From: an uncultured Prolixibacteraceae bacterium
GTDB lineage: Bacteria; Bacteroidota; Bacteroidia; Bacteroidales; FEN-979
Reading direction: 5' to 3'
Assembly (NCBI GenBank): GCA_964605775.1
Contig: CAZSDU010000001.1
Coordinates: 102,741-166,740, forward strand
DNA: 64,000 nucleotides
The notes under the pieces were generated by a model. The model did no database searches and was not told where the DNA came from. It worked only from the letters and a program-made list of their open reading frames with translations. Made by a program: the position numbers and the translations under genes. Shown one piece after another: positions 3,747 through 27,508 of the stretch; the stretch's first letter is position 1, and the number at the start of each line of letters is the position of its first letter.

Positions 3747-4931
3747 TTATTTTACATGAAGTATCATCCCTTTGAGGTAGTCCCCTTCGGGATGAAATAT
3801 ACTGACGGGATGATCAGGCCCCTGGGAAAGCCGGTGAAGGATCCTGACTTCGCGGCCGGCTTCCAGTGCGGCGCTCATCACTGCCGACTGAAAATTTTCC
3901 CGGCTGATGGCCTGGGAACAGGAAAAAGTAAACAATATCCCGCCTTTGTTTAACCGAATCAACGCATTTTTATTGATATGAACATAAGCATGTAAAGCGT
4001 TGTTGGTCACCTTATGCGTCTTGGCAAATGCAGGGGGATCGAGAATGATCATGTCATACCATTCACTGGTCTCGTTCAGATACTTTTTGGCATCTGTCAC
4101 CATTGCTTGATGATGACCGGAATCAAGCCCGTTAAGCGCCACATTTTCATTGGCCCAGTCAATTGACTGACTGGAGCTGTCGACGGAATGCACCAACCTG
4201 GCGCCACCTTTCAGCGCATATACCGAAAATGCCCCGGAATAACAAAAACAGTTCAGCACCTTCCTGTTTCTTGCATAATACTGGGCAAACATCCGGTTTC
4301 CCCTTTGATCCAGAAAGAAACCTGTTTTTTGTCCACGCTCCCAATCAACAAGAAAACGATGGCCGGTTTCAAGGATCTCACCCTTTTGGGAAATGCCATA
4401 TAAGTACTGATCACGGATGTCGGAGGACGGGTGAGGAGTTGTTTCTCTGCTTTTATCATAAACCGCTTTGAGTTGATCGCCGAATATTTGCTGAAGGGCA
4501 GTAACAAATACCGGTTTCAGTTTATGCATGCCCAGAGCGTGAGCTTGAATCACCGCCACACCATTGTACCAGTCAATAATCAGTCCGGGCAATCCATCTC
4601 CCTCAGAATTTACCAGGCGACAGGCATTGTCGGAAGGAGATGTCAACAGGCCAAGATGAATCCTGAAATCATACGCCTTTGAAACTTTTTCAATCCAGAA
4701 AGCCTCATTGATTTCTGTTTGTTGAAAACTGAATATCTTGACTGCAATGGAACTTTCAGCATAATGCCCCAGGGCAAGGAACTCATGTTGATGGGAAAAC
4801 AGTTCAACCGTATCACCTTCCTTTACATTTCCCTTTATCTGATTGATGGCTCCGGAAAAAATCCAGGGATGGAAACGTCTGACTGCCAATTCTTTACCCG
4901 GTTTCAGGATAATTTTGGGAAAGATGTTCAT
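3747..4931 (-). CDS. rlmI: RlmI-type 23S rRNA m5C methyltransferase
   Basis: PUA N-terminus RRFHPWIFSGAI, GQKTGFFLDQR, ILDPPAF, FTFSCS; start reset to ATG at 4931. Confidence 0.88.
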   Translation of the reverse strand: MNIFPKIILKPGKELAVRRFHPWIFSGAINQIKGNVKEGDTVELFSHQHEFLALGHYAESSIAVKIFSFQQTEINEAFWIEKVSKAYDFRIHLGLLTSPSDNACRLVNSEGDGLPGLIIDWYNGVAVIQAHALGMHKLKPVFVTALQQIFGDQLKAVYDKSRETTPHPSSDIRDQYLYGISQKGEILETGHRFLVDWERGQKTGFFLDQRGNRMFAQYYARNRKVLNCFCYSGAFSVYALKGGARLVHSVDSSSQSIDWANENVALNGLDSGHHQAMVTDAKKYLNETSEWYDMIILDPPAFAKTHKVTNNALHAYVHINKNALIRLNKGGILFTFSCSQAISRENFQSAVMSAALEAGREVRILHRLSQGPDHPVSIFHPEGDYLKGMILHVK

Positions 4932-4980
4932 TTTTTTGTTTTTCTTAGTAAATTTGATGCAAATTAAAAAATTCAACCCA

Positions 4981-5832
4981 ATGAAAAAGTATTTATTGCT
5001 TTTATTAATTCCGGTATTTTTTGCCTGTGGCCGTGAGGCCAAGAAAAAAGCCGAAGAATTGCAGGCCAGATCAGATAGTCTGATGAGCCAAACCCTCCAA
5101 AAAGATGAAGCCATCAACGAATTTATCCGCTCCATTAATGAAATCCAGGGGACCCTGGATACCATCAAGATGAAAGAAAACATCATCAACCTGAATACGG
5201 ACCGTGGTGAAGAACTGAAACTTTCTGCCAAAGATCAGATCAAGAACGACATTCAATCCATTTATGGTTTGATGGCTAAGAATAAGGAAACCATCAATGC
5301 CCTGACCAAAAAGCTGAAAAATTCCAATATGAAAGTGGACGAACTTCAGAAAATGGTTGAAAGGCTGAATAAGGACCTTGCCCAGAAAACAGCCGACATT
5401 GAAGAGCTGAGGGAAAAACTTTCCAAGATACACATCGCCTTTGAAAAAGCCAATCTGAAGATAGATACCCTTTCAAGGACGGTTAAATCCCAGGACAGGC
5501 AGTTATCAGATCAGGGTCAGACGATTGCGGAACAGGATGCCGCCCTGCATACCGCTTATTACGTTATCGGGACAGCCAAGGAATTAAAGAAAAGCGGAGT
5601 CATCAAGAGTGGCGAGGTACTGGCAGACTTCAACAAGGATCTCTTTACCCGTATAGACATCAGAAAAACCACCGAGATTTCTGTCCTGAGCAAGAAAGCC
5701 AAGATTCTTTCAAGCCATCCTTCCTCCTCCTATAAATACAATGGGGATAAAAAACTTATCCAATCGCTTCAGATTCTCGATTACAAATTATTCTGGAGCA
5801 ATAGTAAATACCTTGTCATTGTGGTAAACTAA
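4981..5832 (+). CDS. coiled-coil lipoprotein with conserved C-terminal domain (resembles Bacteroidales Cbp1-like family)
   Basis: Signal MKKYLLLLLIPVFFAC (lipobox Cys), long heptad region, C-terminal AYYVIGTAKELKKSGVI. Confidence 0.7.
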   Translation: MKKYLLLLLIPVFFACGREAKKKAEELQARSDSLMSQTLQKDEAINEFIRSINEIQGTLDTIKMKENIINLNTDRGEELKLSAKDQIKNDIQSIYGLMAKNKETINALTKKLKNSNMKVDELQKMVERLNKDLAQKTADIEELREKLSKIHIAFEKANLKIDTLSRTVKSQDRQLSDQGQTIAEQDAALHTAYYVIGTAKELKKSGVIKSGEVLADFNKDLFTRIDIRKTTEISVLSKKAKILSSHPSSSYKYNGDKKLIQSLQILDYKLFWSNSKYLVIVVN

Positions 5833-5903: not shown

Positions 5904-6920
5904 ATGCGCCTTCGGTTAATTATTATTCTGACTTTCGTCCTGAGCAGTCAGGTTGTATTATCGCAAAAACACAGCACGGAACTATTTAAGATCGTTTTTT
6001 ATAATGTCGAAAACCTGTTCGATACCCTTGACAATCCCCTGACTGATGACGAGGAATTTTTACCTGATTCCAAGATAGCATGGAACAGTGAACGTTATTG
6101 GCATAAAATTCAAAATACTGCAAGGGTACTGATGGCTATCGACAGTGTGAATCTGCCGGGAATGATAGGACTGGCCGAGATCGAGAACAATTCAGTACTT
6201 GAAGATTTAATCCTGACCACGGGATTAAAACATGGTAATTATGATATCATTGTTGAAAGCGGACAGGATCCCAGAGGAATCAATGTTGCGTTATTATATA
6301 GAAAAAACATCTTTCGTCAAATAGATCATAAGGCAATCCCCTCAGCGCTTTCTTTTAAAACCCGGGATATCCTTTATGCCAGGCTGTTATGCGCCTCAGG
6401 CGATACTTTCCATGTTTTTGTCAACCACTGGAAGTCAAGACACGGAGGGGCACAGGAAACAGAAATCATGCGTATTGAAAACGCCAGGACCTTAAAACAT
6501 CAGACCGACTCTGTGCTAACCGTGTTTCCTCAGGCCAAACTGATCATCATGGGAGATTTCAATGATGAACCCGGAGATAAAAGCATAACGGAAACCCTCG
6601 GAATCAAAAAACCCGGGGAAACAATTTCCCCTACCGGATTATATAACCTGCTTTATGACCATTACGAAAAGGGGGAAGGGACTTTATATTATAAAGACTG
6701 GGACGTGTTCGACCAGATCATTGTTTCCGGAAATTTGCTACTGAAAAAGAAAGGGAAAAAGCCATTCATTCTGACTGTCGATACACAGATTTTTAAACCT
6801 GACTGGCTGCTCTACAAAAATAAAAACGGAGAACTTGTACCAAACCGGACAGCGGGTTCAAAAGAATATTTCGGGGGCTTTTCCGATCATTTGCCGGTCT
6901 ATACTACAGTAAGGTATTAA
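5904..6920 (+). CDS. exported endonuclease/exonuclease/phosphatase (EEP) family protein
   Basis: Signal peptide; FYNVENLFD, GLAEIEN, VNHWKSR, MGDFND, FDQIIVS, SDHLPV. Confidence 0.9.
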   Translation: MRLRLIIILTFVLSSQVVLSQKHSTELFKIVFYNVENLFDTLDNPLTDDEEFLPDSKIAWNSERYWHKIQNTARVLMAIDSVNLPGMIGLAEIENNSVLEDLILTTGLKHGNYDIIVESGQDPRGINVALLYRKNIFRQIDHKAIPSALSFKTRDILYARLLCASGDTFHVFVNHWKSRHGGAQETEIMRIENARTLKHQTDSVLTVFPQAKLIIMGDFNDEPGDKSITETLGIKKPGETISPTGLYNLLYDHYEKGEGTLYYKDWDVFDQIIVSGNLLLKKKGKKPFILTVDTQIFKPDWLLYKNKNGELVPNRTAGSKEYFGGFSDHLPVYTTVRY

Positions 6921-9513: not shown

Positions 9514-11961
9514 TTAATTGATTACGATTTTTTTAAAGAGTTTTCCTTCCGAGGTCGATAACTGCAATAAATATATGCCTTTGGTTAGCGTTAAGTTATT
9601 AACCGGAACATCATTGTTTCCCTGATGAATGTTACGATTTTCTTCCCAAAGTGTTCTGCCATCAAAGCCAATCAAACCAAGATGAATAATTTCATTGTTT
9701 TTAGCCTGGAACCTAAGTGTAAAATGATCGGTAGTCGGATTTGGGTAGATGATTAACTTGGAAATCAAGTCATTCTCTTCACTGATCCCGTCATGAGGCT
9801 TGAAGGTTATCCTGACTGTATCTGACTGAACACCGTAAGAGTCGGTCACCCTGCAGTATACTTTTTTAGTACCAAAACCCACGCCTGTAGAATCGATATG
9901 AACGATTTGTCCCAGATCTCCTGTGGACCACACATAGGTTTCAAATTGACCGGCATCCAGGGTCACGGTTTCATTTGCATATACAATCTGATCAGGACCC
10001 AGGTCAAGCACGGGGTGATCGCTTAAAGGAATGGCAAGCTTAAAACGCTGGATAAACTCCTGATAAAAAAGATTAGCAATCAAGGCATCATGAATGACGA
10101 TGCTGTTTTCGTCATTATTGACGTTGGCTGCATCGCTCCAGTTATGGGAACCAGTCCACACGAAGGGGTCAGAAGATGGATTTGACTGATCCACTATCAT
10201 CATCTTGCTATGGAGTAGTCCCTGTTCATGGTATTCCCTGAAATTATTCCCGAGGGCAGTGCCAAGGTTTGCGACCACGGTAGCATCGGAAGTGGCACGA
10301 TTGGAGATAACCACCTTGGAGTTCACTCCTGCCTGTGATTTTGCAATGATGGCATTGCTGATCACAGTACGGGTGATTAGCATTGTCCCGACCTCCATAT
10401 CCGTATTGGCTGTTCCGATGTGGTTGACGATCTGCTGATTGACGCCATCGCTGGGACTGAAATAAACTTCCACCCTTTTACCCCCAATGATCAGTTCATG
10501 AGGAGTATTATCGGATTTCGCGGGTCCAAATTTTGCATTGGACGCGTTGGGGGTAATGGTGGATGAACCATACATTTCTTCGAATTCAAGGGTATAAACG
10601 ATGGCCAAACTCTTGTCCTGAATAAACAATACATTATTGGCATCGGTATTTATATTCTGATCTGTCCAGTTACAGGACCCTGTCCATACGATGGGATCGT
10701 TGGGGTTGGCAGACTGCCCATCGATCACCATGAATTTGTCATGCATTATTCCCGAAGTAACCGGCCGGGCAATTTTCCCGATACCGGCATTGAGCTCCTG
10801 CATGGCGGAGTTATTGGTTCCCCCATCGGTTACGATCCTGACCCTGACCCCTCTGGCATTGGCAGCATTAAGCGCGCCTACGATACTACTGATCCCTTCA
10901 ACGTTAAAATTGTAAATGGCAATATCGATGGTTTGTTTGGCCCGGTTAATATAAGCGATACAAGTATCATCCACAGCGCGGTTAATTTGTATTGCTTTTT
11001 CAGAAGTTGCTACGGTAGTATCAACCGGTCTTGTGAAATAAATCTTGAATATACCGCTGGAAAGGGATTGAGTGACGAAATTCTTCAGTCCCGACCAGCC
11101 GGTATCGGAAGCGGCCACAGAAAAGGCTTTAACATAGATCAAATCGGAAGGGCTGAGCCCTGAAAGACTGATGCTGTGTGTCAGTCCGCTTCCTGTCGAA
11201 GGAATATGACCGAGTTCCAGTTGAGGGGTGCGTCCATAGAAAAGCTCCGTGCTTCCTGCAATATTGGTTGTCCAATCCAGGGAAAACCCGCTGGTGGTAA
11301 TATTGCTGACTGCAAGGGGGGTGGTGAACAGGATTGAGCTGCTGGCAAGAATATCATTTTTATCGCGGAGCAGCAGTTGATATCCCTGGGTGGGGTTCGA
11401 ATAATGAAATTGAGAACAGATACCTACGAGGGTGACTTTATCCGCAGGGATGATTTGTCCTACAAGGTTTGAATTATTGTTGACACGAACCTGGGCAGTT
11501 TGACTCCCTGCGGTCACATTATAATTGGTATTTCCGGCAAAAACTCCACCGGCATTGGCAAATGTAACATCTACCATTTTGACCAGCATGGCTTCGTTGG
11601 CTTCATTCATTCCGCCGGGAGTGATGACCAGGGGTTCAGGAAGATTAACCGGGGCTATGGCCGAAAAGGAATTAACCGGATCCAATTCAAGGAGCTGGTT
11701 ATATAATTTCGTGACCCCGGTGATCAGGATGGAATCCCCCCTGACAACGGAGCTCAGGGTATTGCTATAAGCTGCAATGCCGGCAGTGCCATCCTGCAGA
11801 TAACGGATAATGCCCAATTCAGAACCATTGGTAACGACTCCACGGACAGTGACTGTCGATCCTTCAGGCATAGCTTTGGCAGCGGCGATGGTAATCGCCT
11901 GAGAGAAGCCCTGAAGTCCAAAGATCGTCAGGAAAATGATTAAAGAAGCAATTTTTTTCAT
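9514..11961 (-). CDS. T9SS cargo: two OB-fold-like domains, Fn3-like domain, double-HKD phospholipase D/Nuc-like domain, CTD
   Basis: Signal peptide; TVTVRGVVT...YLQDGTAGI; HDKFMVID and HSKMMIVD with WTGSxNW; IYPNP CTD. Confidence 0.85.
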   Translation of the reverse strand: MKKIASLIIFLTIFGLQGFSQAITIAAAKAMPEGSTVTVRGVVTNGSELGIIRYLQDGTAGIAAYSNTLSSVVRGDSILITGVTKLYNQLLELDPVNSFSAIAPVNLPEPLVITPGGMNEANEAMLVKMVDVTFANAGGVFAGNTNYNVTAGSQTAQVRVNNNSNLVGQIIPADKVTLVGICSQFHYSNPTQGYQLLLRDKNDILASSSILFTTPLAVSNITTSGFSLDWTTNIAGSTELFYGRTPQLELGHIPSTGSGLTHSISLSGLSPSDLIYVKAFSVAASDTGWSGLKNFVTQSLSSGIFKIYFTRPVDTTVATSEKAIQINRAVDDTCIAYINRAKQTIDIAIYNFNVEGISSIVGALNAANARGVRVRIVTDGGTNNSAMQELNAGIGKIARPVTSGIMHDKFMVIDGQSANPNDPIVWTGSCNWTDQNINTDANNVLFIQDKSLAIVYTLEFEEMYGSSTITPNASNAKFGPAKSDNTPHELIIGGKRVEVYFSPSDGVNQQIVNHIGTANTDMEVGTMLITRTVISNAIIAKSQAGVNSKVVISNRATSDATVVANLGTALGNNFREYHEQGLLHSKMMIVDQSNPSSDPFVWTGSHNWSDAANVNNDENSIVIHDALIANLFYQEFIQRFKLAIPLSDHPVLDLGPDQIVYANETVTLDAGQFETYVWSTGDLGQIVHIDSTGVGFGTKKVYCRVTDSYGVQSDTVRITFKPHDGISEENDLISKLIIYPNPTTDHFTLRFQAKNNEIIHLGLIGFDGRTLWEENRNIHQGNNDVPVNNLTLTKGIYLLQLSTSEGKLFKKIVIN

Positions 11962-12019
11962 GTTATTGTTTTTATTTCAGTATTAGATTAGTACCAGAGT
12001 AACAAAGTTAAACATCTTA

Positions 12020-12051
12020 CTCACCATCTCACAAACTCACCATCTCACCAG
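12020..12051. repeat. degenerate 8-nt tandem array (ctcacca-type)
   Basis: ctcaccat ctcacaaa ctcaccat ctcaccag. Confidence 0.8.
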
Positions 12052-12055
12052 CTTA

Positions 12056-14935
12056 TTAATAGCTGATAGCGATGGATGCATTGAACCTTCTTCCCATCCC
12101 AAAGAATACGCCGGCCGATGAAGCATCAAATCCTGTGGTTTTTGTAGAATAGGAATCGTTGTTTTTGGCATCAGAAATATACTTCTGGTTAAGCAGGTTT
12201 AAAACGCTTGCCCTGATATCCAGCTTGAAATTTTTAAATGTAAAACGATATCCGGCATTCAGGTCAACCAGATAATACACGGGTAATTGCCAGGAATCAG
12301 GAGGATTTCCATCTTTGTCCATATATTTTGGAATCAGGGAGGCGGGATCCATCTGGGAGTAATTTTTAGCAAACAGAGTAAAGCTGCCAGAGACATACAG
12401 ATATTTAATGATTTCCCAACGCAGGCTTTCCATCAACTGGAACTGGGCTGCATCTCCGACATGTACTCCTTTGGCATTAAAAGTCAGGCTATCCAGCAGG
12501 TTGCCACTGGGATCGTAAACATAGGCCGTACCTCCTGACATCCATCGCCAATCTCCCCAGGCTACTACCTGATCCCATTGTATTGAGGGAATGGGTTTCC
12601 ATCCAAATTCAACTTCTATCCCGGTATGTAATGCATCTATACCGTTTATGTTTACAGGAAAATTGTCGCCATTGATCGTAACGTATAATGCTTGATCAAG
12701 GGGGCGGTTTTTCCAGTTGGTGAGGTAGGCATTAAGATTAAGTCCGATGGTTTTTGAATTGTAGCTATATCCTACTTCCACAGCCCTGATGATTTCATTT
12801 CTTACATCCAGGTATTCCTTATTGTTGTTATCAAATACATTCTGGAAACGGGGAGCTTTCGACAAATAACCCAGGTTGATAAATACGTTATTCCTTTTAT
12901 CAATATTATAGTTCGCTCCTCCTTTGATGGTAAATCCGGGAAAATATTTCCATTTTGTCCTTGTCGCAAACGCATGAGATGAATTAATATCGTATGCCGT
13001 GGGATTGACAATGGAAAAGGTGTCTTTTATCGAACCATTCTGTTTTACCACGAAAACAGTATCTCCTGAAGTAAATTGGGTATCTCCTTTCCCCTGTGAA
13101 TAAGTGAGATTGTCATTGCCATTATAATAGAAAGTATCTCCATATCCCACTGCCTGGGTGAAAGTATTGCCATCCACGATAATATCTTTTTTCTTGAAAT
13201 AATCAATACGGTTATAGGCAGATAAGGCAGTGGTCAGGTTAATGAAAGCCGACCATTTATCTTTTTTAAATTCCAGTTGTGCAAAGACTCCTCCCCAGCG
13301 GACCAATCCATCATTGTAATAATAGATTTTGTCGCCAACAACCATGTTATCATACTGATTTTTATTCTTGTTGGCATCATCCCGCATGAAATCGCCTCCC
13401 AGCAGGTCGTACACCTCACCGTAATGCTGACCCTTGTATGTTCTCAGGTCAAGACCACCGGAAAGGGTGAACATCGGGTTAATCTCCCAGTTAAAAGTAG
13501 ATAACAATCCATACCAGTAATGATTGTTAACACTACTGCGAATAATGCCTTCGGAACGATGAGTGGGATCATTCATATTCCTGTCATAATAACTCTGGTA
13601 ATTGATCAGTCCATTAGAAAGGTCAATATTCGAAAAAGTAGAGGTGATATAGGCTCCGCTGGAAGTAGTGGAAAAATTCCCCGTTCCTCCTCCGTTTCCG
13701 ATGGAAGCATAAACAATATTAGACCAATAAAATTTATCGGTGACACGCCAGAAATCCCTTAAACTGAGCTGGGGTTTGAAATAATAATTTTTGGATTGGG
13801 ACAGATCTTCCGTTTTATCCAGATAGACCGGATTTCCTTCTGTATCTTTTTCTGTCCAGCGGTTCAGGTGTCCCCAGTTCGAATTGTATCGGATCCCATA
13901 GGAATAGGTGGAATCTATGAGGCCCTGGCGGACGCCGACTTTTGCCGCATAAACCTTATCAAAGGTGGCGATGGATTTCATATAGGATCGCTGGGCATGC
14001 TGCTGGGGAGCACCCATGGCTGAAAAGGTGAGGGTATGCCGGCCAAATCGCTTATCCACCCGGATATATCCAAACCAGCCTTTGGTCCAGGTATTGTCCA
14101 CCCAGCCATTACCTTGTTTGTAGGAAGCGGCTATTGTCACGCCCCAGCCATATTTCAATTGACCGGTCGTGACGCCAAGGGAGGTCCTGAAAAAACCATC
14201 GCTGCCAAATTCCTGTTTGACGATTCCGCCCAGGTTCACATCTATCCCCTTGGTGATAATATTCATGGTTCCACCGACGGAAGGCAAAGCCAGTTTTGAA
14301 GCGCCCAGACCACGTTGGACCTGGATATTCCGGGTCACGGCATCAAGGCCGAACCAGTTGGACCAGTAAACCCATCCATTTTCCATATCATTCACCGGAA
14401 TCCCGTCAATCATCACGGCAAGATTGCGTTGGCTGAAACCCCGGATGTTAATACGGGCATCGCCATCGCCTCCTCCCTGTTGGGTAGCATAAACCCCGGG
14501 AGTTTTGTTAAGGATCATCGGGAGATCGCGGGAAGCAAGTCCTTCCTGCATCTGAAGAGGAGTCACCGTGGAAAATGCAACGGGGGTTTCCCGGGTTTTT
14601 GCCACATCACCCACAACTTCCACCTCTGTGAGGGTGGGTGTTTTTAACTGAAAGTCATAGGTGATATCCGACTCGGCGACCACGATATCTGCTTCCTGGG
14701 GAAGATATCCCACATAAGAAACCCTGAGGTGGTAGTTGCCCTTTTCAACTTTGATATAATATCTTCCATCCATATCGGAAACAACTCCTTTATTTTCACC
14801 ATACATGATGGTAGCGCCGATAAGTGTTTCCCCTGATCCGGCATCTTTGATCACTCCCCTGATCATCCGTTTTTGCGCAAACATAACAACAGGCAGGAAC
14901 ATGATCAACATAAGAACAACTGCACGCTTTGTCAT
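12056..14935 (-). CDS. TonB-dependent receptor with N-terminal carboxypeptidase-regulatory-like domain
   Basis: GETLIGATI, plug motifs (TPGVY, INIRGF, DGIPVND, IQVQRGLGAS..GGTMNIIT), C-terminal NLLNQKY...GRRFNASIAISY. Confidence 0.93.
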   Translation of the reverse strand: MTKRAVVLMLIMFLPVVMFAQKRMIRGVIKDAGSGETLIGATIMYGENKGVVSDMDGRYYIKVEKGNYHLRVSYVGYLPQEADIVVAESDITYDFQLKTPTLTEVEVVGDVAKTRETPVAFSTVTPLQMQEGLASRDLPMILNKTPGVYATQQGGGDGDARINIRGFSQRNLAVMIDGIPVNDMENGWVYWSNWFGLDAVTRNIQVQRGLGASKLALPSVGGTMNIITKGIDVNLGGIVKQEFGSDGFFRTSLGVTTGQLKYGWGVTIAASYKQGNGWVDNTWTKGWFGYIRVDKRFGRHTLTFSAMGAPQQHAQRSYMKSIATFDKVYAAKVGVRQGLIDSTYSYGIRYNSNWGHLNRWTEKDTEGNPVYLDKTEDLSQSKNYYFKPQLSLRDFWRVTDKFYWSNIVYASIGNGGGTGNFSTTSSGAYITSTFSNIDLSNGLINYQSYYDRNMNDPTHRSEGIIRSSVNNHYWYGLLSTFNWEINPMFTLSGGLDLRTYKGQHYGEVYDLLGGDFMRDDANKNKNQYDNMVVGDKIYYYNDGLVRWGGVFAQLEFKKDKWSAFINLTTALSAYNRIDYFKKKDIIVDGNTFTQAVGYGDTFYYNGNDNLTYSQGKGDTQFTSGDTVFVVKQNGSIKDTFSIVNPTAYDINSSHAFATRTKWKYFPGFTIKGGANYNIDKRNNVFINLGYLSKAPRFQNVFDNNNKEYLDVRNEIIRAVEVGYSYNSKTIGLNLNAYLTNWKNRPLDQALYVTINGDNFPVNINGIDALHTGIEVEFGWKPIPSIQWDQVVAWGDWRWMSGGTAYVYDPSGNLLDSLTFNAKGVHVGDAAQFQLMESLRWEIIKYLYVSGSFTLFAKNYSQMDPASLIPKYMDKDGNPPDSWQLPVYYLVDLNAGYRFTFKNFKLDIRASVLNLLNQKYISDAKNNDSYSTKTTGFDASSAGVFFGMGRRFNASIAISY

Positions 14936-14958
14936 AATTCAGTTATTAGTGTTTTGAC

Positions 14959-14997
14959 ACAATATAGGGGCAACCCTGCGGCTTGCCCCTATATTGT
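14959..14997. terminator. perfect 15-bp stem-loop between the LTD and TBDR genes
   Basis: acaatataggggcaa / ttgcccctatattgt with 9-nt loop. Confidence 0.7.
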
Positions 14998-15021
14998 TTT
15001 TAACCATTTTCAATCATTCCT

Positions 15022-16044
15022 TTATTGGGTAATGATCTTTCGGATCACCGGCTGATTGTCGCCCAGGAACACTTTAACCAGATAAATTCCATCGGGCATT
15101 TCATTCAGCACAACCCTGACTTCTTTCTGACGGTTAGCCAGGGTTTTGGAATAAACCGTTTTCCCCACGATGGAAACTACTTCTACCGCGGTGATGGATT
15201 GGTTGGCAGCAACAGTAAACTGATTATTGGTCACAGGATTCGGCTGAACAGTAACGCTGACCGATTGCTGGGGTTCAGTAATCCCCTGTGAGGATTTGCA
15301 ATCGCACCAATGGGTTCCGAGGCTGTCGAAAAAGTTGGCAGGCAGTGTATCATATTCTTTCAAGGCATAGAAGCTGTTGGGGACACCGCCGGTGATTGAA
15401 TCTCCATAATGGCTCATGGTTATTCTGTCAACCCCGAACTTAACGGTATGCTTGCGAACCAGGGTTTTACTTTTCGTCAGGTATCGTCCTGTTCCAATCA
15501 CATAGGGTTTGGTATCGGTCCAGGCGCCGGAAGGGCTGTAAGTTCCCTGCCAGTTTTTCGGACGAACGCCGATTTCCCCGAAAATATCTATATCCTTCCA
15601 GGATTCGTTGGGTTGTTTTTTCTGAAGGGATACGGCATCATCTCCATTCCAGAAAACACAATTTCCGCCGGGAGTTGTTCCACCATAATCATAAGGTGCG
15701 AGCCAGTCTGCTTTTTTACGTAAGCCAGGCCAAACCATGGTATCCTGGCCGGGTTTGGTAGTATCCTGTATGATGACCCAGGTGGAAAACGCAGCAATGG
15801 TTCCGGTCAAGGGCAGATTGTAAAGCAATTCCTGATCAGAAGTAGTGCTTCCGTTGGAATAACGGATAAGGCGGTAATTACCATCCAGGGTAATGGGGTT
15901 GGGGGTAGGATTATACAATTCAACGGCTTTGTTATTGTTCCATCCTTCCACATGTTCCGACATGAAGATATCAGCACAGTCTGTCTGTGCATAGATCAAA
16001 GCTGCCGGAAAGAAAAGCGAAATAGAAAGTAAAAGTTTTTTCAT
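15022..16044 (-). CDS. T9SS cargo with lamin-tail domain
   Basis: Signal peptide; IFMSEHVEGWNNNKAVELYNP, FWNGDDAVSL, DIFGEIG; VQPNP CTD. Confidence 0.82.
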   Translation of the reverse strand: MKKLLLSISLFFPAALIYAQTDCADIFMSEHVEGWNNNKAVELYNPTPNPITLDGNYRLIRYSNGSTTSDQELLYNLPLTGTIAAFSTWVIIQDTTKPGQDTMVWPGLRKKADWLAPYDYGGTTPGGNCVFWNGDDAVSLQKKQPNESWKDIDIFGEIGVRPKNWQGTYSPSGAWTDTKPYVIGTGRYLTKSKTLVRKHTVKFGVDRITMSHYGDSITGGVPNSFYALKEYDTLPANFFDSLGTHWCDCKSSQGITEPQQSVSVTVQPNPVTNNQFTVAANQSITAVEVVSIVGKTVYSKTLANRQKEVRVVLNEMPDGIYLVKVFLGDNQPVIRKIITQ

Positions 16045-16121
16045 ATTTTAGGTATTAAGGGGGTTTCTCCGAAATTCTATACAAAAATAGAAAAAGAATG
16101 TCCGTGAAAGTTAAGGGATTA

Positions 16122-19100
16122 TTAAATGTTAGTAACTTTTTGCAAAGATAAAGACTCAAGTCTGGTCAGCGCATCTTCAATTCCGGCTACATTCTTCAGG
16201 GTGATCAGTAAACGATCCTTGTCTTCCTTCATCTGGCAAAACCGGGGATGATCCTTTATAAAATCGAGCAATGCGGTAAACTGGAGCGACTGATAGTAAG
16301 GAGAGTCGGGGTTTGAGATGAAATAAGCATTCAGGCGGTTGTTACGCAGCAACAGTTTTTCAAAGCCGATCTTTCTTGCCAGCCAGCGTAACCGGATGGT
16401 AAGGATAAGGGTTTCCGTCTGAGGTGGAAGGGGGCCAAAACGATCCGTCAATTCAGTCTGAAACCGGATCAGTTTTTCTTCCGTTTCAATGGCATCGAGT
16501 TCCTTGTAAAGATTGAGCCTTTCCGTGATATTCACAACATAATGGTCGGGGATGAGAATTTCGAGGTCAGTTTCAATAACACAGTCTTTCACGTACTCCC
16601 CTTGGAAATCTTCTTTGAAAACATCCCTGAATTCATTTTCCTTCAGTTCAAGTAAGGCTTCATCCAGGATTTTCTGGTACATTTCATAGCCGATTTCTGA
16701 AATAAAACCGCTTTGTTCCCCTCCCAGGATGTTTCCTGCTCCGCGAATATCAAGGTCGCGCATGGCAATACTGAACCCACTGCCAAGGTCGGCAAATTCT
16801 TCAATGGTCCTCAGGCGTTTTCTTGCCTCATCGGTCAGGGTTGACATGGGTGGGGCAAGAAGATAGCAAAAAGCTTTCTTATTGGAACGGCCCACCCTCC
16901 CCCTGAGTTGATGGAGATCGCTCAGTCCATAATGATGAGCATCATTGATGATAATGGTATTGACGTTGGGAATGTCAAGCCCTGATTCGATGATGGTAGT
17001 GGAAACCAACACATCATATTCTCCTTCGATGAAATCGATCATGATCTTTTCCAGCCTGGCCCCTTCCATTTGTCCATGAGCGATGGCAATTTTTGCCCTG
17101 GGAACAGCCCTTTGGATCATCCCCGTGATGTCAAGGATATTCTGAACCCTGGTATTCACAAAGAATACCTGTCCTCCCCTGGCCACTTCATCATTGATGG
17201 CGTCCCGGATAATTGCTTCACTGAAGGGATGGATTTCTGTCTGGACAGGATATCGGTTGGGGGGAGGGGTGTTGATGATGGAAAGGTCGCGGGCGCCCAT
17301 GAGGGAGAATTGCAAGGTACGGGGAATGGGTGTGGCGGTGAGCGTGAGTGTATCCACGCTCACCTTGAACTGTTTGATTTTCTCTTTTGCCCCTACCCCG
17401 AATTTTTGTTCTTCATCTATAATCAGTAGTCCGAGATTTTTAAACTTTACGTCTTTACTGAGTAATCTGTGGGTTCCGATCAGGATGTCGATTTTCCCAA
17501 CAGCCAGGTCCTGAAGTAATTTTGTTTGAGCTTTGGTCGTTCTGAAGCGATTGATATAATCCACCCTGCCCGGAAAATTCTTTAAGCGGTCGGAAAATGT
17601 TTTATAATGCTGTAAAGCGAGTATGGTCGTAGGAACGAGAATGGCGACCTGCCGGCTTTCCGTGATGACTTTAAACGCTGCCCGGATGGCGATTTCCGTT
17701 TTTCCGAAGCCGACATCCCCGCAGATCAACCGGTCCATGGGATAAGTTTCCTCCAAATCCTTTTTTACATCCAGGGTAGTCTTGATCTGGTCGGGAGTGT
17801 CTTCATAGATAAAGGAAGCCTCCAGTTCATGCTGAAGATAAGTATCTGGAGCACAGGCATAACCCTTGGTAGCGCGCCTTTCGGCATAAAGTCGGATCAG
17901 ATCCTTGGCAATGTCCTTGACCCTGCTCTTGGTTTTGGTTTTCAGTTTATTCCAGGCCTCCGACCCCAGGCGGTTGAGGCTGGGGGCAGATCCATCCTTT
18001 CCGATGAATTTTGTTATCCTGTGGAGGGAATGAATACTGACATAGAGAAGGTCATTGTTTTTATAAATCAGGCGGATGGCTTCCTGTTCTTTTCCGTTAT
18101 TGACAATCTTCTCCAAGCCATCGAAACGTCCTACTCCATGATCAATATGGGTAACGAAATCTCCGGGTTTCAGATCGTAAAGCTCTTTCAGGGTCAGGGC
18201 TTCTTTGCTGGTATATCCATCCCTCAGATGAAACCGGTGGTAACGTTCAAAGATCTGATGGTCAGTATAACAGGCCAGCTTCAGGTCATGGTCAATGAAA
18301 CCCTCATGAATGGTGAAATTCAGCGTAAGCAGGGAGGGATCAGTATCGGGTGATAAGGGAGGGGAAATGAGAAAAGATTTGCTTTTCATCTCCTCAACAA
18401 TACTGTACAGGCGTTCTGCTTGTTTTGGATTGTCGGTCAGTAAAATATTCTGAATGCCCTGATCCCGGTTTTTATCAAGGTTTTGCAGCAGAAGGTCAAA
18501 GTTTTTATTGAAAGAAGGCTGGGGTTGGGTATGGAAGGTTACAGATGCGGCTGATTTAAAATAAAACTGATGACCAAATTCGAGGGTGGAGAAGCGAAGC
18601 AGCCACATCAGAAAGTCATTGCCTGTTAACAAAAGATCAGAGGCAGGTTGTTTGTTGATGATGTCGCTTATATAATCCATATCATCCAGCCAGATCATAG
18701 CGGCATCCGGAAGGAAAGAAAATAAAGGCTCATAGGATATTTTCTTATCCGGGCTGATTCTGATATCCGGCACAATGGAGATCTCGGCTTTTTTCTCAAT
18801 CGACAATTGCGTGGAAGGGTCAAAGCTGCGGATGGAGTCCACTTTATCATCCAGAAAAGAAATGCGGTAAGGGTGGTCACTACTGAAAGAATATACGTCA
18901 ATAATTCCGCCGCGCAACGAGAACTGACCCGGTTCTATGACAAAATCAGTGCGTTCAAACTCATATTCCACCAGCAAATCCAGAATAAAATCCATGTTCA
19001 CCTGCTCGCCTGCAAATAGTCTGAGGGTATTTTTCTCCAGAAATTTTTTATTGACTACTTTTTCGGCCAGGGCTTCCGGGTAAGTGACCAGGAGGAATTT

Positions 19101-19520
19101 CGGGGATTTGCGGTTCAGGCGGTTCAGCACTTCGGTTCTGGCAAGCAGTCCCTGATTGTCCTTCAGTCCGGAATCAATACCGCGTTTGAATGAAGAAGGA
19201 AAAAACAGCACCATTTTTTTTTCCGAATCCAGGTCCTTTTCGTCCAGGATGTTTTCAAGGTCATTATAAAAATATGCCGCCGATTCTTTATCAGGGAGAA
19301 TAAAAAAATGGACAGCGGGAAGCTTACTGAATACGGAAACCGCCACAAATGCTTTAGAAGAAGCGACAAGCCCCCTGAGGTGGAGACGAAATCTGGTGAG
19401 CTGGTGAGTGGGTGAGCTGGTGAGTGGACGAGTGGACTCAGACAGGTTTAGAATTTCCTGGACCCCGGGATGCTGGTGATAGGCTGAGAGTAATGCTGCG
19501 TGGTTCAATCCTTTATTCAT
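16122..19520 (-). CDS. mfd: transcription-repair coupling factor
   Basis: UvrB-like region (GQFSLRGGIID), CarD/TRCF domain (VTHIDHGVG), GDVGFGKT, DEEQKFG, TATPIPRTL, QLRGRVGR; likely start ATG at 19520. Confidence 0.97.
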   Translation of the reverse strand: MNKGLNHAALLSAYHQHPGVQEILNLSESTRPLTSSPTHQLTRFRLHLRGLVASSKAFVAVSVFSKLPAVHFFILPDKESAAYFYNDLENILDEKDLDSEKKMVLFFPSSFKRGIDSGLKDNQGLLARTEVLNRLNRKSPKFLLVTYPEALAEKVVNKKFLEKNTLRLFAGEQVNMDFILDLLVEYEFERTDFVIEPGQFSLRGGIIDVYSFSSDHPYRISFLDDKVDSIRSFDPSTQLSIEKKAEISIVPDIRISPDKKISYEPLFSFLPDAAMIWLDDMDYISDIINKQPASDLLLTGNDFLMWLLRFSTLEFGHQFYFKSAASVTFHTQPQPSFNKNFDLLLQNLDKNRDQGIQNILLTDNPKQAERLYSIVEEMKSKSFLISPPLSPDTDPSLLTLNFTIHEGFIDHDLKLACYTDHQIFERYHRFHLRDGYTSKEALTLKELYDLKPGDFVTHIDHGVGRFDGLEKIVNNGKEQEAIRLIYKNNDLLYVSIHSLHRITKFIGKDGSAPSLNRLGSEAWNKLKTKTKSRVKDIAKDLIRLYAERRATKGYACAPDTYLQHELEASFIYEDTPDQIKTTLDVKKDLEETYPMDRLICGDVGFGKTEIAIRAAFKVITESRQVAILVPTTILALQHYKTFSDRLKNFPGRVDYINRFRTTKAQTKLLQDLAVGKIDILIGTHRLLSKDVKFKNLGLLIIDEEQKFGVGAKEKIKQFKVSVDTLTLTATPIPRTLQFSLMGARDLSIINTPPPNRYPVQTEIHPFSEAIIRDAINDEVARGGQVFFVNTRVQNILDITGMIQRAVPRAKIAIAHGQMEGARLEKIMIDFIEGEYDVLVSTTIIESGLDIPNVNTIIINDAHHYGLSDLHQLRGRVGRSNKKAFCYLLAPPMSTLTDEARKRLRTIEEFADLGSGFSIAMRDLDIRGAGNILGGEQSGFISEIGYEMYQKILDEALLELKENEFRDVFKEDFQGEYVKDCVIETDLEILIPDHYVVNITERLNLYKELDAIETEEKLIRFQTELTDRFGPLPPQTETLILTIRLRWLARKIGFEKLLLRNNRLNAYFISNPDSPYYQSLQFTALLDFIKDHPRFCQMKEDKDRLLITLKNVAGIEDALTRLESLSLQKVTNI
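19393..19437. repeat. 8-nt tandem array inside the mfd coding sequence
   Basis: ctggtgag ctggtgag tgggtgag ctggtgag tggacgag tggac. Confidence 0.85.
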
Positions 19521-19617
19521 TACACAAACCGGGAGGGTTAAGGGGGCGGGGTTTATAATTTTATTCCTGAGCAAAATTACAAAAAGATCCGTCCGGAATT
19601 TTCCTTATTTTTGATCC

Positions 19618-27484: not shown

Positions 27485-27508
27485 CTCACCAACTCACAAA
27501 CTCAATAT
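27485..27508. repeat. degenerate 8-nt array (ctcacca-type) overlapping the ABC-F stop codon
   Basis: ctcaccaa ctcacaaa ctcaatat. Confidence 0.65.

Follow-up and report, generated by a model that had tools for sequence, protein, structure and literature searches.

[quoted passage not shown] This question is raised by three neighbouring genes in the genome of an uncultured Prolixibacteraceae bacterium, which were studied within a window of 64,000 nucleotides (the whole stretch of DNA that was analysed; contig CAZSDU010000001.1, positions 102,741 to 166,740). An initial, sequence-only reading had described three co-oriented genes for a lamin-tail domain (LTD) protein, a TonB-dependent receptor (TBDR) and an OB-fold/PLD protein, and had suggested that they form a T9SS-based scavenging unit. 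The Pfam and NCBIfam profiles confirmed all three genes, which lie on the minus strand in the order LTD, TBDR and PLD. The features of the locus are as follows:

16082-16089, minus strand: promoter-like Bacteroidetes -7 motif TATTTTTG, read from the sequence, 37 nt upstream of the LTD start codon
15022-16044, minus strand: gene 1, LTD protein with a T9SS C-terminal sorting domain (CTD), P0001, 340 aa
14959-14997, minus strand: RNA hairpin with a 15-bp stem between the LTD and TBDR genes, MFE -28.8 kcal/mol, z -5.5
12056-14935, minus strand: gene 2, TonB-dependent receptor, P0002, 959 aa
12020-12057, minus strand: array of 8-nt (N)TGGTGAG units in the TBDR-PLD spacer
9514-11961, minus strand: gene 3, DUF5689-Fn3-double-HKD PLD-Ig-CTD protein, P0003, 815 aa
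11347-11898, minus strand: tandem-OB DUF5689 module of P0003, residues 22-205, behind an SPI signal peptide
11062-11346, minus strand: Fn3 domain of P0003, residues 206-300
10027-11061, minus strand: predicted single-chain double-HKD PLD-superfamily nuclease domain of P0003, residues 301-645
Residues 646-735 of P0003, minus strand: Ig-like spacer
Residues 736-815 of P0003, minus strand: T9SS CTD (Por_Secre_tail; TIGR04183 exceeds its cut-off)
5904-6920, plus strand: exported EEP nuclease gene, P0005, 338 aa, separately transcribed

Gene arrangement and transcription signals

The cassette is flanked by housekeeping genes, with mfd upstream and genes for a GT2 glycosyltransferase, a dihydroorotase and a MORN protein downstream. 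The TBDR gene and gene 3 are separated by 94 nt, and the EEP nuclease gene lies 2.6 kb from gene 3. According to the explanation that we prefer, and in which we have moderate confidence as a whole, the LTD, TBDR and nuclease genes constitute one operon. The motif in front of the LTD gene corresponds to TAnnTTTG, the Bacteroidetes -7 consensus. Of 95 complete trios, 71 have TAnnTTTG within the 110 nt that precede the LTD gene (median position -46), 3 have it in front of the TBDR gene and 7 in front of the third gene, the background being 0.056 per 110 nt. Moreover, the LTD-TBDR spacer contains a stem of 9 bp or more in 82% of 72 trios (median z -3.55), compared with 11% for the spacer between the TBDR and the third gene (z +0.33). 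The hairpin sequences vary among lineages, and the hairpin of the present locus has no clear U tract. It is a candidate for a leaky terminator or a 3'-end stabiliser, which would set the LTD protein above the TBDR in abundance. Five read-sized metatranscriptome contigs, which could include DNA, match the cassette: they fall in the nuclease gene, in the TBDR gene and at the junction of the LTD and TBDR genes, where one of them (14923-15057) runs through the hairpin. The (N)TGGTGAG array is probably not specific to the cassette: there are six matches in the window versus 0.02 expected, and it is also found at 19395-19424 and 27485-27506.

Domain architecture of the encoded proteins

P0001 consists of an SPI signal peptide, an extended LTD (approximately residues 21-255) and a T9SS type-A CTD. 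The LTD model PF00932 covers residues 21-147 with 40.7 bits versus a cut-off of 34.3, Por_Secre_tail was detected by Pfam at residues 268-338 and TIGR04183 exceeds its cut-off. No catalytic domain was found in the protein with the Pfam and NCBIfam profiles, and P0001 is the sole copy of the LTD protein in the genome. At the cell surface, P0001 may assist the barrel as an accessory protein. P0003 also ends in a type-A CTD, and a lipobox cysteine after the signal peptide is absent from both proteins. The host genome encodes the SprA translocon (SprA_N, E 3e-164) and at least 27 other CTD-bearing open reading frames, and the CTDs probably leave P0001 and P0003 on the cell surface.

The N-terminal part of P0003, which had been described as an OB fold, does contain an OB module, and this assignment could be refined: it is the DUF5689 module of the lipoprotein DdbD from Bacteroides (PF18942, 44.8 bits versus a cut-off of 28.6). 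In a comparison with 10 DdbD-like lipoproteins, hhalign gave 98.5% with an E-value of 2.8e-15 over 181 columns, and the aligned region is the two-barrel DUF5689 part of DdbD (template positions 47-268 of 447). At the level of sequence, the OB module of P0003 is therefore homologous to DdbD; a Foldseek search with the N-terminal model returned only Fn3 matches, so that the OB/HIN-like fold is without structural confirmation. With a median pI of 4.7-5.0, the LTD, OB and PLD modules are acidic overall, unlike a simple electrostatic DNA binder.

The catalytic part of P0003, the only PLD of its type in the genome and part of its only DUF5689 protein, comprises two PLDc_2 domains (E 1.6e-38), and its top NCBIfam name is nuclease NucT. 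Both lobes fit the HxK(x)4D(x)6G(S/T)xN catalytic motif of PLD-superfamily nucleases, the first with H407-K409-D414...G428-S-C-N431 and the second with H584-K586-D591...G604-S-H-N607. Among 58 homologues, H407, K409, D414, N431, H584, K586, D591, G604 and N607 are invariant and G428 is conserved in at least 90%. A phmmer search of the PDB with the PLD domain yielded Zucchini (1e-9), Nuc (1.6e-7) and NucT (2.6e-4), as well as one phospholipase (3e-3). In the AlphaFold2 (AF2) model of P0003 (pLDDT 85.7), Nuc (1byr) superposes on one lobe with a TM-score of 0.83 and 26% identity. Phospholipases D are among the top Foldseek matches of the two-lobed domain, a search which alone does not discriminate a nuclease from a lipid-acting PLD. 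Judged by sequence, the domain is nearer to the nuclease branch of Zucchini, Nuc and NucT than to the lipid-acting enzymes, and P0003 is a putative nuclease. Like P0003, Nuc from the Salmonella plasmid pKM101, NucT from H. pylori and Zucchini/PLD6 carry HxK(x)4D...GSxN motifs; however, they have one HKD motif each, are about 150-220 aa long and form dimers, whereas P0003 unites both lobes in one chain with OB, Fn3, Ig and CTD modules.

The receptor P0002 possesses a signal peptide, a CarbopepD_reg_2 domain (residues 25-107), a TonB-box-like LTEVEVVGD (101-109), a Plug domain (114-213) and a divergent barrel. As had been predicted, it is without a SusD partner, since no SusD/RagB family member was found among the ten neighbouring genes scanned; a polysaccharide utilisation locus of the SusC/SusD type was rejected for this reason. 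P0002 is by far the genome's top match to three DdbC-like barrels (E 8e-30 to 1e-18), with runners-up, where listed, at about 4e-5 to 5e-5. The best DdbC-like barrel aligns over nearly the full length of P0002 (E 8e-30), and the identity to these barrels is merely 22-24%.

P0005, which the sequence-only reading had correctly named as an exported EEP nuclease-family protein, matches Exo_endo_phos_3 (E 2e-90) and has an N-terminal SPI signal peptide; a CTD and a lipobox are both absent. It may be a DdbB-like nuclease, either periplasmic or released. P0005 is encoded outside the operon and falls into PF19580, not into the nuclease domain of ExeM; genes of the PF19580 family adjoin classical DdbC/DdbD pairs at 8 of 15 loci sampled. 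An EEP-family gene is also located approximately 0.15-3 kb upstream of the LTD gene in six distant cassettes. DdbB, for which the ddb paper gives no family name, may be assigned to the same EEP family.

Distribution and relationship to known systems

The conservation of the gene order, which had been put forward as a check, was borne out across the Bacteroidia. The order LTD, TBDR and PLD was found in 51 of 61 PLD-anchored loci, down to identities of 40% for the PLD and 29% for the LTD protein, while about 10 of the 61 OB-PLD genes are without an adjoining TBDR. In an even sample of 40 LTD-anchored loci across the class Bacteroidia, the TBDR gene follows the LTD gene in 37 cases from 22 families, an association that is far beyond chance because it is repeated over so many families. 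The third gene of these 37 cassettes encodes a T9SS nuclease in 34 cases, namely Endonuclease I (27), OB+PLD (5) or OB+Endonuclease I (2). A phylogenetic tree, the second proposed check, placed the LTD-linked TBDRs including P0002 in one clade (support 100/100), which lies together with the DdbC-like barrels in a larger group (92/84); the branching order of the clades is not fixed by the tree. The PLD and Endonuclease I cassettes interleave within the LTD-linked clade, indicating that the catalytic domain has been swapped while the slot was kept. Near relatives of the P0002 barrel are also found alone, without any nuclease.

Of 401 Bacteroidia genomes, 107 from 22 families encode the LTD protein, a frequency which together with the 37 of 40 sampled loci suggests that about a quarter of the Bacteroidia genomes harbour the cassette. 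A classical DdbD-type gene, recognised by a strong DUF5689 match, occurs in 85 of the 401 genomes. Both were never found in the same genome, versus 22.7 genomes expected (p 7e-14, without correction for phylogeny), and three families contain both types in separate genomes.

The closest described system is the ddbABCDEF DNA-utilisation locus, known from the BT3558-3563 region of Bacteroides thetaiotaomicron in Bt and Pv subtypes that share about 25% (Sharan et al. 2025, 10.1101/2025.03.18.642099 = PMC12478041). A locus of the ddb type would be expected to be necessary for the depletion of exogenous DNA. The extracellular components of ddb are lipoproteins, as the sequence-only reading had stated, and DdbD is the predicted DNA-binding partner of DdbC (Sharan et al. 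2025). Both systems combine a SusD-less CarbopepD_reg TonB-dependent barrel directly upstream of a DUF5689 tandem-OB module with secreted nucleases, the PF19580 EEP family is associated with both, the variants exclude each other within one genome and the overall logic resembles that of a polysaccharide-utilisation locus. However, the extracellular parts of the cassette are T9SS cargo with an SPI signal peptide and a CTD, whereas those of ddb are SPII lipoproteins. Moreover, DUF5689 is fused to the nuclease in the cassette, while DdbD is a separate protein that bears a choice-of-anchor-J domain. Where ddb employs an EEP enzyme, the cassette has a double-HKD PLD, and sister cassettes have Endonuclease I. 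An LTD-CTD protein precedes the barrel, and the barrel forms its own clade.

A second relative is the Riemerella anatipestifer pair RA0C_RS04915/RA0C_RS04920, in which a CarbopepD_reg barrel is followed by a DUF5689 protein next to a ddbB-like nuclease, again in a T9SS-bearing member of the Bacteroidota (PMC8459023). However, the DUF5689 protein of Riemerella is annotated as choice-of-anchor J with DUF5689 and DUF5017, no nuclease domain has been reported for it, the operon is without an LTD gene and its demonstrated role is transformation (PMC8459023). In the 401-genome sample, the LTD protein and this Riemerella-like classical type never share a genome. The extracellular nucleases ExeM, NucH and YhcR likewise have an LTD and nucleic-acid-binding OB folds as accessory domains, and the DUF5689 model also matches in B. 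subtilis. The N-terminus of ExeM (NF033680) matches P0001 with an E-value of 3e-12, covering residues 5-97 only at 45 bits versus a cut-off of 1300, and NF033681 (ExeM_NucH) matches P0005 at 43 bits versus 300. These enzymes are single polypeptides with an EEP or SNase domain, a GlyGly-CTERM or sortase anchor and no dedicated TBDR, whereas in the cassette two T9SS proteins encoded on either side of a transporter share the domains between them, and a PLD fold would carry out catalysis. Identity with the ExeM/NucH family was rejected, the LTD, OB and DNase domains being on separate proteins and both models scoring far below their cut-offs. On the whole, the sequence-only interpretation was supported, most of the checks that it had proposed having turned out favourably. 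Altogether, the cassette looks like a T9SS-dependent, lipoprotein-free variant of the DNA-uptake module of ddb and Riemerella; no paper describing such a version was found in the searchable literature, in line with the earlier suspicion.

Function and biological meaning of the cassette

It is fairly probable that the cassette is a T9SS-dependent outer-membrane system for harvesting nucleic acid and an apparent functional counterpart of the ddb loci. This reading is based on the architecture, the operon signals, the gene order, the homology to the DdbD module, the exchange of the nuclease type and the exclusivity with classical DdbD. Transcription would begin at the TAnnTTTG promoter upstream of the LTD gene, and the hairpin behind it would lower, or outlast, read-through into the TBDR and nuclease genes. 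The T9SS would export the LTD protein and the nuclease, which the CTDs probably keep on the surface, where the LTD protein may help the barrel in capture or docking. The DdbD-like tandem-OB module would hold nucleic acid at or over the barrel, the putatively metal-independent double-HKD domain would cleave it and the TBDR would take the cleavage products up into the periplasm, in which P0005 and housekeeping enzymes may complete the degradation to provide phosphorus, nitrogen and carbon.

Alternatively, the cassette could be the outer-membrane step of natural transformation, with the nuclease processing the duplex and ComEC taking the DNA to the cytoplasm. We regard this as rather unlikely, and it would be compatible with a nutritional role. 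NucT of H. pylori, the closest NCBIfam name of the PLD domain, has been linked to transformation, and genes for ComEC and a ComEA-like HHH_3 protein are present in the genome. However, ComEC and ComEA are near-universal (matches in 10 and 11 of 14 control genomes, respectively), no competence gene is linked to the cassette at any examined locus and the DNA-binding module is fused to a predicted non-specific nuclease. Most cassettes contain Endonuclease I, an enzyme that antagonises transformation in Vibrio. In favour of the transformation reading, both the barrel RA0C_RS04915 and RA0C_RS04920, with a DUF5689 module as in P0003, are essential for transformation in R. anatipestifer (PMC8459023).

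It is very unlikely that the nuclease merely remodels extracellular DNA, for instance in biofilm matrix turnover, dispersal or escape from DNA traps, as has been shown for BT3563 of B. thetaiotaomicron, with the TBDR importing no products. The T9SS-secreted Endonuclease I of R. anatipestifer does affect adhesion and virulence (PMC12398890), but a pure matrix nuclease has no need of a dedicated importer, the barrel forms the unvarying core of the cassette and appears to be co-transcribed from the single promoter, and the fact that the cassette and the transporter-anchored DdbC/DdbD system exclude each other suggests that transport is their common function. Hardly credible is an action of the PLD on phospholipids or another phosphodiester polymer, with import of head-groups, phosphate esters or an unrelated cofactor. 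The JGI source annotation of the PLD protein as a [quoted passage not shown], the phospholipases D among the Foldseek matches and weak BtuB and PqqU matches of the TBDR in NCBIfam would fit this idea. However, the best sequence-level matches are nucleases, the PLD domain is fused to a DdbD-type OB module, the BtuB matches reach 33-44 bits versus cut-offs of 600-836, and orthologous cassettes in which Endonuclease I takes the place of the PLD speak against phospholipids as the substrate.

Going beyond the harvesting reading, we tentatively suggest, with some doubt, that the LTD-CTD protein is the dedicated T9SS-delivered surface subunit of the LTD-linked barrel clade, which would correspond to SusD and DdbD without being a lipoprotein, and that the LTD cassette and the classical DdbC/DdbD pair are mutually exclusive versions of one class-wide nucleic-acid importer. 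If so, roughly half of the Bacteroidia would possess an importer that serves both catabolism and natural transformation and replaces the type IV pilus route of other Gram-negative bacteria.

Bacteroidota are prominent polymer degraders in water, sediment and sludge, and a major pool of phosphorus and nitrogen in these habitats is extracellular DNA. Dedicated outer-membrane DNA utilisation was first described in 2025, in gut Bacteroides alone, which are without a T9SS. The cassette would carry this biology over to environmental T9SS-bearing lineages, and it would demonstrate that the extracellular partners of a TonB-dependent transporter can be T9SS cargo in place of lipoproteins. Recognition of the module would correct the annotation of barrels and PLD proteins that are generically or misleadingly named as TonB-dependent or cobalamin-like receptors and cardiolipin-synthase-like enzymes. 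Moreover, the conserved promoter and hairpin are handles for expression studies, and the strict LTD-or-DdbD distribution provides a clean comparative framework.

Organisation and transcription of the locus

The locus is formed by three genes encoding a lamin-tail (LTD) protein, a TonB-dependent receptor (TBDR, hereafter barrel) and a nuclease with PLD domains, and a separate gene for an Exo_endo_phos (EEP) nuclease lies nearby. The following features are relevant:

15022-16044, minus strand: gene 1 (P0001), 340 aa; signal peptide, lamin-tail domain, T9SS type-A C-terminal sorting domain (CTD)
12056-14935, minus strand: gene 2 (P0002), 959 aa; TBDR with CarbopepD_reg_2 N-terminal domain and Plug
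9514-11961, minus strand: gene 3 (P0003), 815 aa; signal peptide, DUF5689 match, two PLDc_2 domains, T9SS CTD
5904-6920, plus strand, opposite to the trio: P0005, exported Exo_endo_phos_3 (EEP) nuclease
16122-19574: mfd, on one side of the trio
Other side of the trio: GT2/dihydroorotase/MORN gene group
16082-16089: -7 motif TAnnTTTG, 37 nt upstream of the ATG of the LTD gene
14959-14997: hairpin with a 15-bp stem in the LTD-barrel spacer (MFE -28.8, z -5.5)

Domain searches agreed in every item with the sequence-only reading, which had described an LTD protein, a TBDR devoid of SusD, an OB/PLD protein and an EEP nuclease. No SusD-like gene was found among the ten neighbouring genes scanned. 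The first 97 residues of P0001 match the N-terminus of ExeM, and the best NCBIfam name for P0003 is nuclease NucT. Both proteins lack a lipobox, and the T9SS translocon SprA is present in the genome, as are at least 27 further proteins with a CTD. The genome contains one copy each of DUF5689, of an LTD protein of the P0001 type and of a PLD protein of the P0003 type. The downstream genes were rejected as members of the unit because the dihydroorotase (670 bits vs a cut-off of 535), the polyprenyl-phosphate GT2 and the MORN protein are housekeeping functions. Upstream of P0005, a Cbp1-family coiled-coil lipoprotein resembling collagen-binding glycoprotein adhesins is encoded at 4843-5832 (NF052320, 244 bits vs a cut-off of 90). 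The same genome has another EEP nuclease paralogue of the PF19580 type, located beyond the window on contig C2 (161346-162494; 382 aa, HMM E 3e-96).

In the 110 nt preceding each gene of 95 complete trios, the motif TAnnTTTG, which we take to be the consensus of the Bacteroidetes -7 element, was seen before 71 LTD genes, 3 barrel genes and 7 third genes (background 0.056). The median intergenic spacers are about 50 nt long. In the window, the 37 nt between the motif and the LTD gene are too short to accommodate a 60-nt RNA leader. Since the frequency before the third gene is near background, the sequence TAACTTTG at 12003-12010 was regarded as unproven as an internal promoter of the nuclease gene. 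Of 72 trios, 82% can form a stem of 9 bp or more in the LTD-barrel spacer (median z -3.55); its sequence varies from lineage to lineage, and a comparable hairpin was not seen in the barrel-nuclease spacer (11%, z +0.33). Because the barrel gene lacks a separate promoter motif, the hairpin most likely serves either as a leaky terminator or to stabilise 3' ends, and would in this way hold the LTD transcript at a higher level. Five contigs of read size from one public metatranscriptome are identical to the locus, and one of them runs from the end of the LTD gene through the hairpin into the start of the barrel gene. These contigs are direct, if weak, evidence for transcription and read-through, and they are too few for deriving relative expression.

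Arrays of the 8-nt unit (N)TGGTGAG are located at 12020-12057 (minus strand) in the TBDR-nuclease spacer, at 19395-19424 (plus strand) inside the 5' part of mfd and at 27485-27506 (minus strand) near 27.5 kb; the pattern has 6 matches in the window against 0.02 expected. The array in mfd encodes a low-complexity stretch within a variable N-terminal region. The listed mfd ORF begins at a TTG codon (window 19393-19574). As relatives leave the first ~20-60 residues unmatched, with tblastn alignments that begin between query residues 14 and 63 in the various loci, translation probably starts further downstream.

Conservation of the gene order and exchange of the nuclease

The sequence-only reading had proposed to examine whether the gene order is conserved, and it indeed is, as judged by two surveys. 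A nuclease-anchored scan with one genome per species yielded 80 loci, 61 of which had enough upstream sequence. The order LTD, barrel, nuclease was found in 51 of these 61 loci, 47 by strict ORF and HMM criteria and four with a barrel that is split over two frames and visible by tblastn. In MAGs carrying the labels Rikenellaceae, Saprospiraceae, Salinivirgaceae and Prolixibacteraceae, the order is kept down to 40% nuclease and 29% LTD identity. The barrel was absent beside ten OB-PLD genes, which are mostly of a shorter type. The LTD-anchored survey relied on 401 genomes sampled evenly across the class, of which 115 gave an LTD-protein match and 107, from 22 families, a full-length-type match (E <= 1e-25). 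Among 40 loci fetched from the full-length-type carriers, the LTD gene was directly followed by the barrel gene in 37. The third gene encodes a T9SS nuclease in 34 of the 37 loci, which is Endonuclease I in 27, OB-Fn3-PLD in five and OB plus Endonuclease I in two cases; of the other three loci, one encodes a tyrosine recombinase and another an unclassified CTD protein in this position, and in the last a nuclease could not be recognised behind the barrel gene.

Six Endonuclease-I cassettes (L120, L115, L117, L105, L112 and L138) contain an ORF of ~150-220 aa between the barrel and nuclease genes, and the single one that was scanned matched no family. The 'LPTSW...GW' N-terminus of the Endonuclease-I-type third genes was considered as the choice-of-anchor-J half of DdbD, the DUF5689 lipoprotein of the B. 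thetaiotaomicron DNA-utilisation locus ddb, and rejected (hhalign 0.4%; NCBIfam only choice-of-anchor D).

The sequence-only reading had also suggested placing the TBDR in a phylogeny. In a maximum-likelihood tree, the LTD-linked barrels form a single clade (100/100), within which PLD-type and Endonuclease-I-type cassettes interleave. Thus, the enzyme slot has been refilled by an unrelated nuclease fold while the LTD protein and the barrel were kept. No other observation argues as strongly for nucleic acid, rather than lipid, as the substrate of the PLD domain of P0003. In P0003, both HKD motifs are conserved, and H407, K409, D414, N431, H584, K586, D591 and N607 are invariant in an alignment of 58 sequences. 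By sequence, each PLD half is nearest to PLD-superfamily nucleases of known structure (Zucchini, 1e-9; Salmonella Nuc, 1.6e-7; NucT, 2.6e-4), and the AlphaFold model (pLDDT 85.7) superposes on Nuc with a TM of 0.83. Two-lobed PLDs, including PLD4 bound to ssDNA, also match the model, so the fold alone does not settle the substrate; whole-protein Foldseek was discarded as a substrate test because it does not separate lipid-acting from nucleic-acid-acting PLDs.

In the model, two five-stranded barrels (22-205) are followed by Fn3 (206-300), PLD (301-645), an Ig-like spacer and the CTD. The Pfam match is confined to the latter half of DUF5689. Profile-profile comparison (hhalign) of residues 22-300 with ten classical, i.e. 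DdbD-type, DUF5689 lipoproteins aligned 181 columns (98.5% probability, E 2.8e-15), which span the two-barrel region of the latter. A Foldseek search of the PDB with the model of residues 22-300 (pLDDT 92.9) for HIN/p202-like or YhcR-like OB folds gave only Fn3 domains as top matches, so the OB assignment relies on Pfam, hhalign and the strand pattern. In a net-charge test for DNA binding, the LTD, OB and PLD modules were acidic, which counts against simple electrostatic binding of DNA.

Relation to the ddb locus and proposed function of the unit

In B. thetaiotaomicron, ddbABCDEF is needed for the depletion of exogenous DNA (10.1101/2025.03.18.642099). DdbC is a TonB-dependent barrel, and DdbD is its predicted cap, with a predicted resemblance to the HIN domain of p202, which binds dsDNA; DdbA, DdbB and DdbF are the nucleases (10.1101/2025.03.18.642099). 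The extracellular parts are lipoproteins (10.1101/2025.03.18.642099), as the sequence-only reading had stated for Bacteroides DNA-utilisation loci. The VPI-5482 operon comprises BT3560-3563 with two EEP lipoprotein nucleases. The trio shares with ddb a SusD-less barrel, a putative DNA-binding DUF5689 module encoded after the barrel, secreted nucleases and an associated PF19580 nuclease. However, its extracellular proteins are not lipoproteins like those of ddb, and its barrel belongs to a separate clade. Moreover, the trio adds the LTD protein, which is absent from the descriptions consulted of ddb and of the homologous barrel/DUF5689 pair of Riemerella anatipestifer. Although the trio is not an enzyme of the ExeM/NucH type, it re-uses accessory domains of this family. 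Literature searches for a T9SS nuclease with a TBDR or an LTD protein with a TBDR brought up no description of the trio, consistent with the earlier suspicion that a T9SS version may be undescribed.

In a phylum sample, the classical pairs consist of a ~860-960 aa barrel and, after it, a DUF5689 lipoprotein of 440-530 aa, to which NCBIfam assigns 'M949_1556 family lipoprotein' and choice-of-anchor J. The two genes adjoin in 14 of the 15 loci examined, and a PF19580 EEP nuclease, the family of P0005, is their neighbour in 8 of the 15. P0002 is by far the best match in its genome for three classical barrels (E 8e-30 to 1e-18; the next, where listed, about 4e-5). As its identity to DdbC-like barrels is 22-24% and the tree does not fix the branching order among the DdbC-like, solitary-barrel and LTD-linked clades, which lie within one larger group (92/84), P0002 is treated as a probable relative of DdbC rather than as a member of the DdbC subfamily. 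Among the 401 genomes, 107 carry the LTD protein and 85 a strong classical DUF5689 match (E <= 1e-30), and none carries both (22.7 expected; p 7e-14, one-sided Fisher, genomes counted without correction for phylogeny). Families f12, f62 and f70 hold both kinds in separate genomes. This exclusivity, which resembles that reported among ddb subtypes (Sharan et al., 10.1101/2025.03.18.642099), fits two interchangeable versions of one function.

The solitary barrels (L086-L091; genomes G047, G055, G147, G123 and G012) are 37-44% identical to P0002 and have pgi nearby, mostly directly adjacent. No LTD, DUF5689 or nuclease gene was found beside them; they warn against a functional name for the barrel family as a whole and count against the model. 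Locus L093 (G119:C11, 6909-12740), from a genome of the same order, encodes a P0002-like barrel, a 597-aa lipoprotein without Pfam match and then a second lipoprotein, of 389 aa, that has an OB fold of the tRNA_anti-codon type; the locus may be another lipoprotein-based variant for nucleic-acid uptake, perhaps the 'Pv type'. At L097 (G015:C33, 11890-15891), a 1333-aa T9SS protein combining Calx-beta, two DUF5689 and an EEP nuclease domain, an ExeM-like single-chain version, is encoded one gene from a P0002-like barrel.

DNA taken up by the unit may serve as food or may feed natural transformation, for which the Riemerella pair is essential (PMC8459023). The latter reading is kept in play by ComEC and a ComEA-like protein encoded in the genome of the window; however, the genes for both are near-universal. 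As a unit for nucleic-acid capture, cleavage and import, a general function well supported by comparative evidence, the trio would work like the ddb locus.
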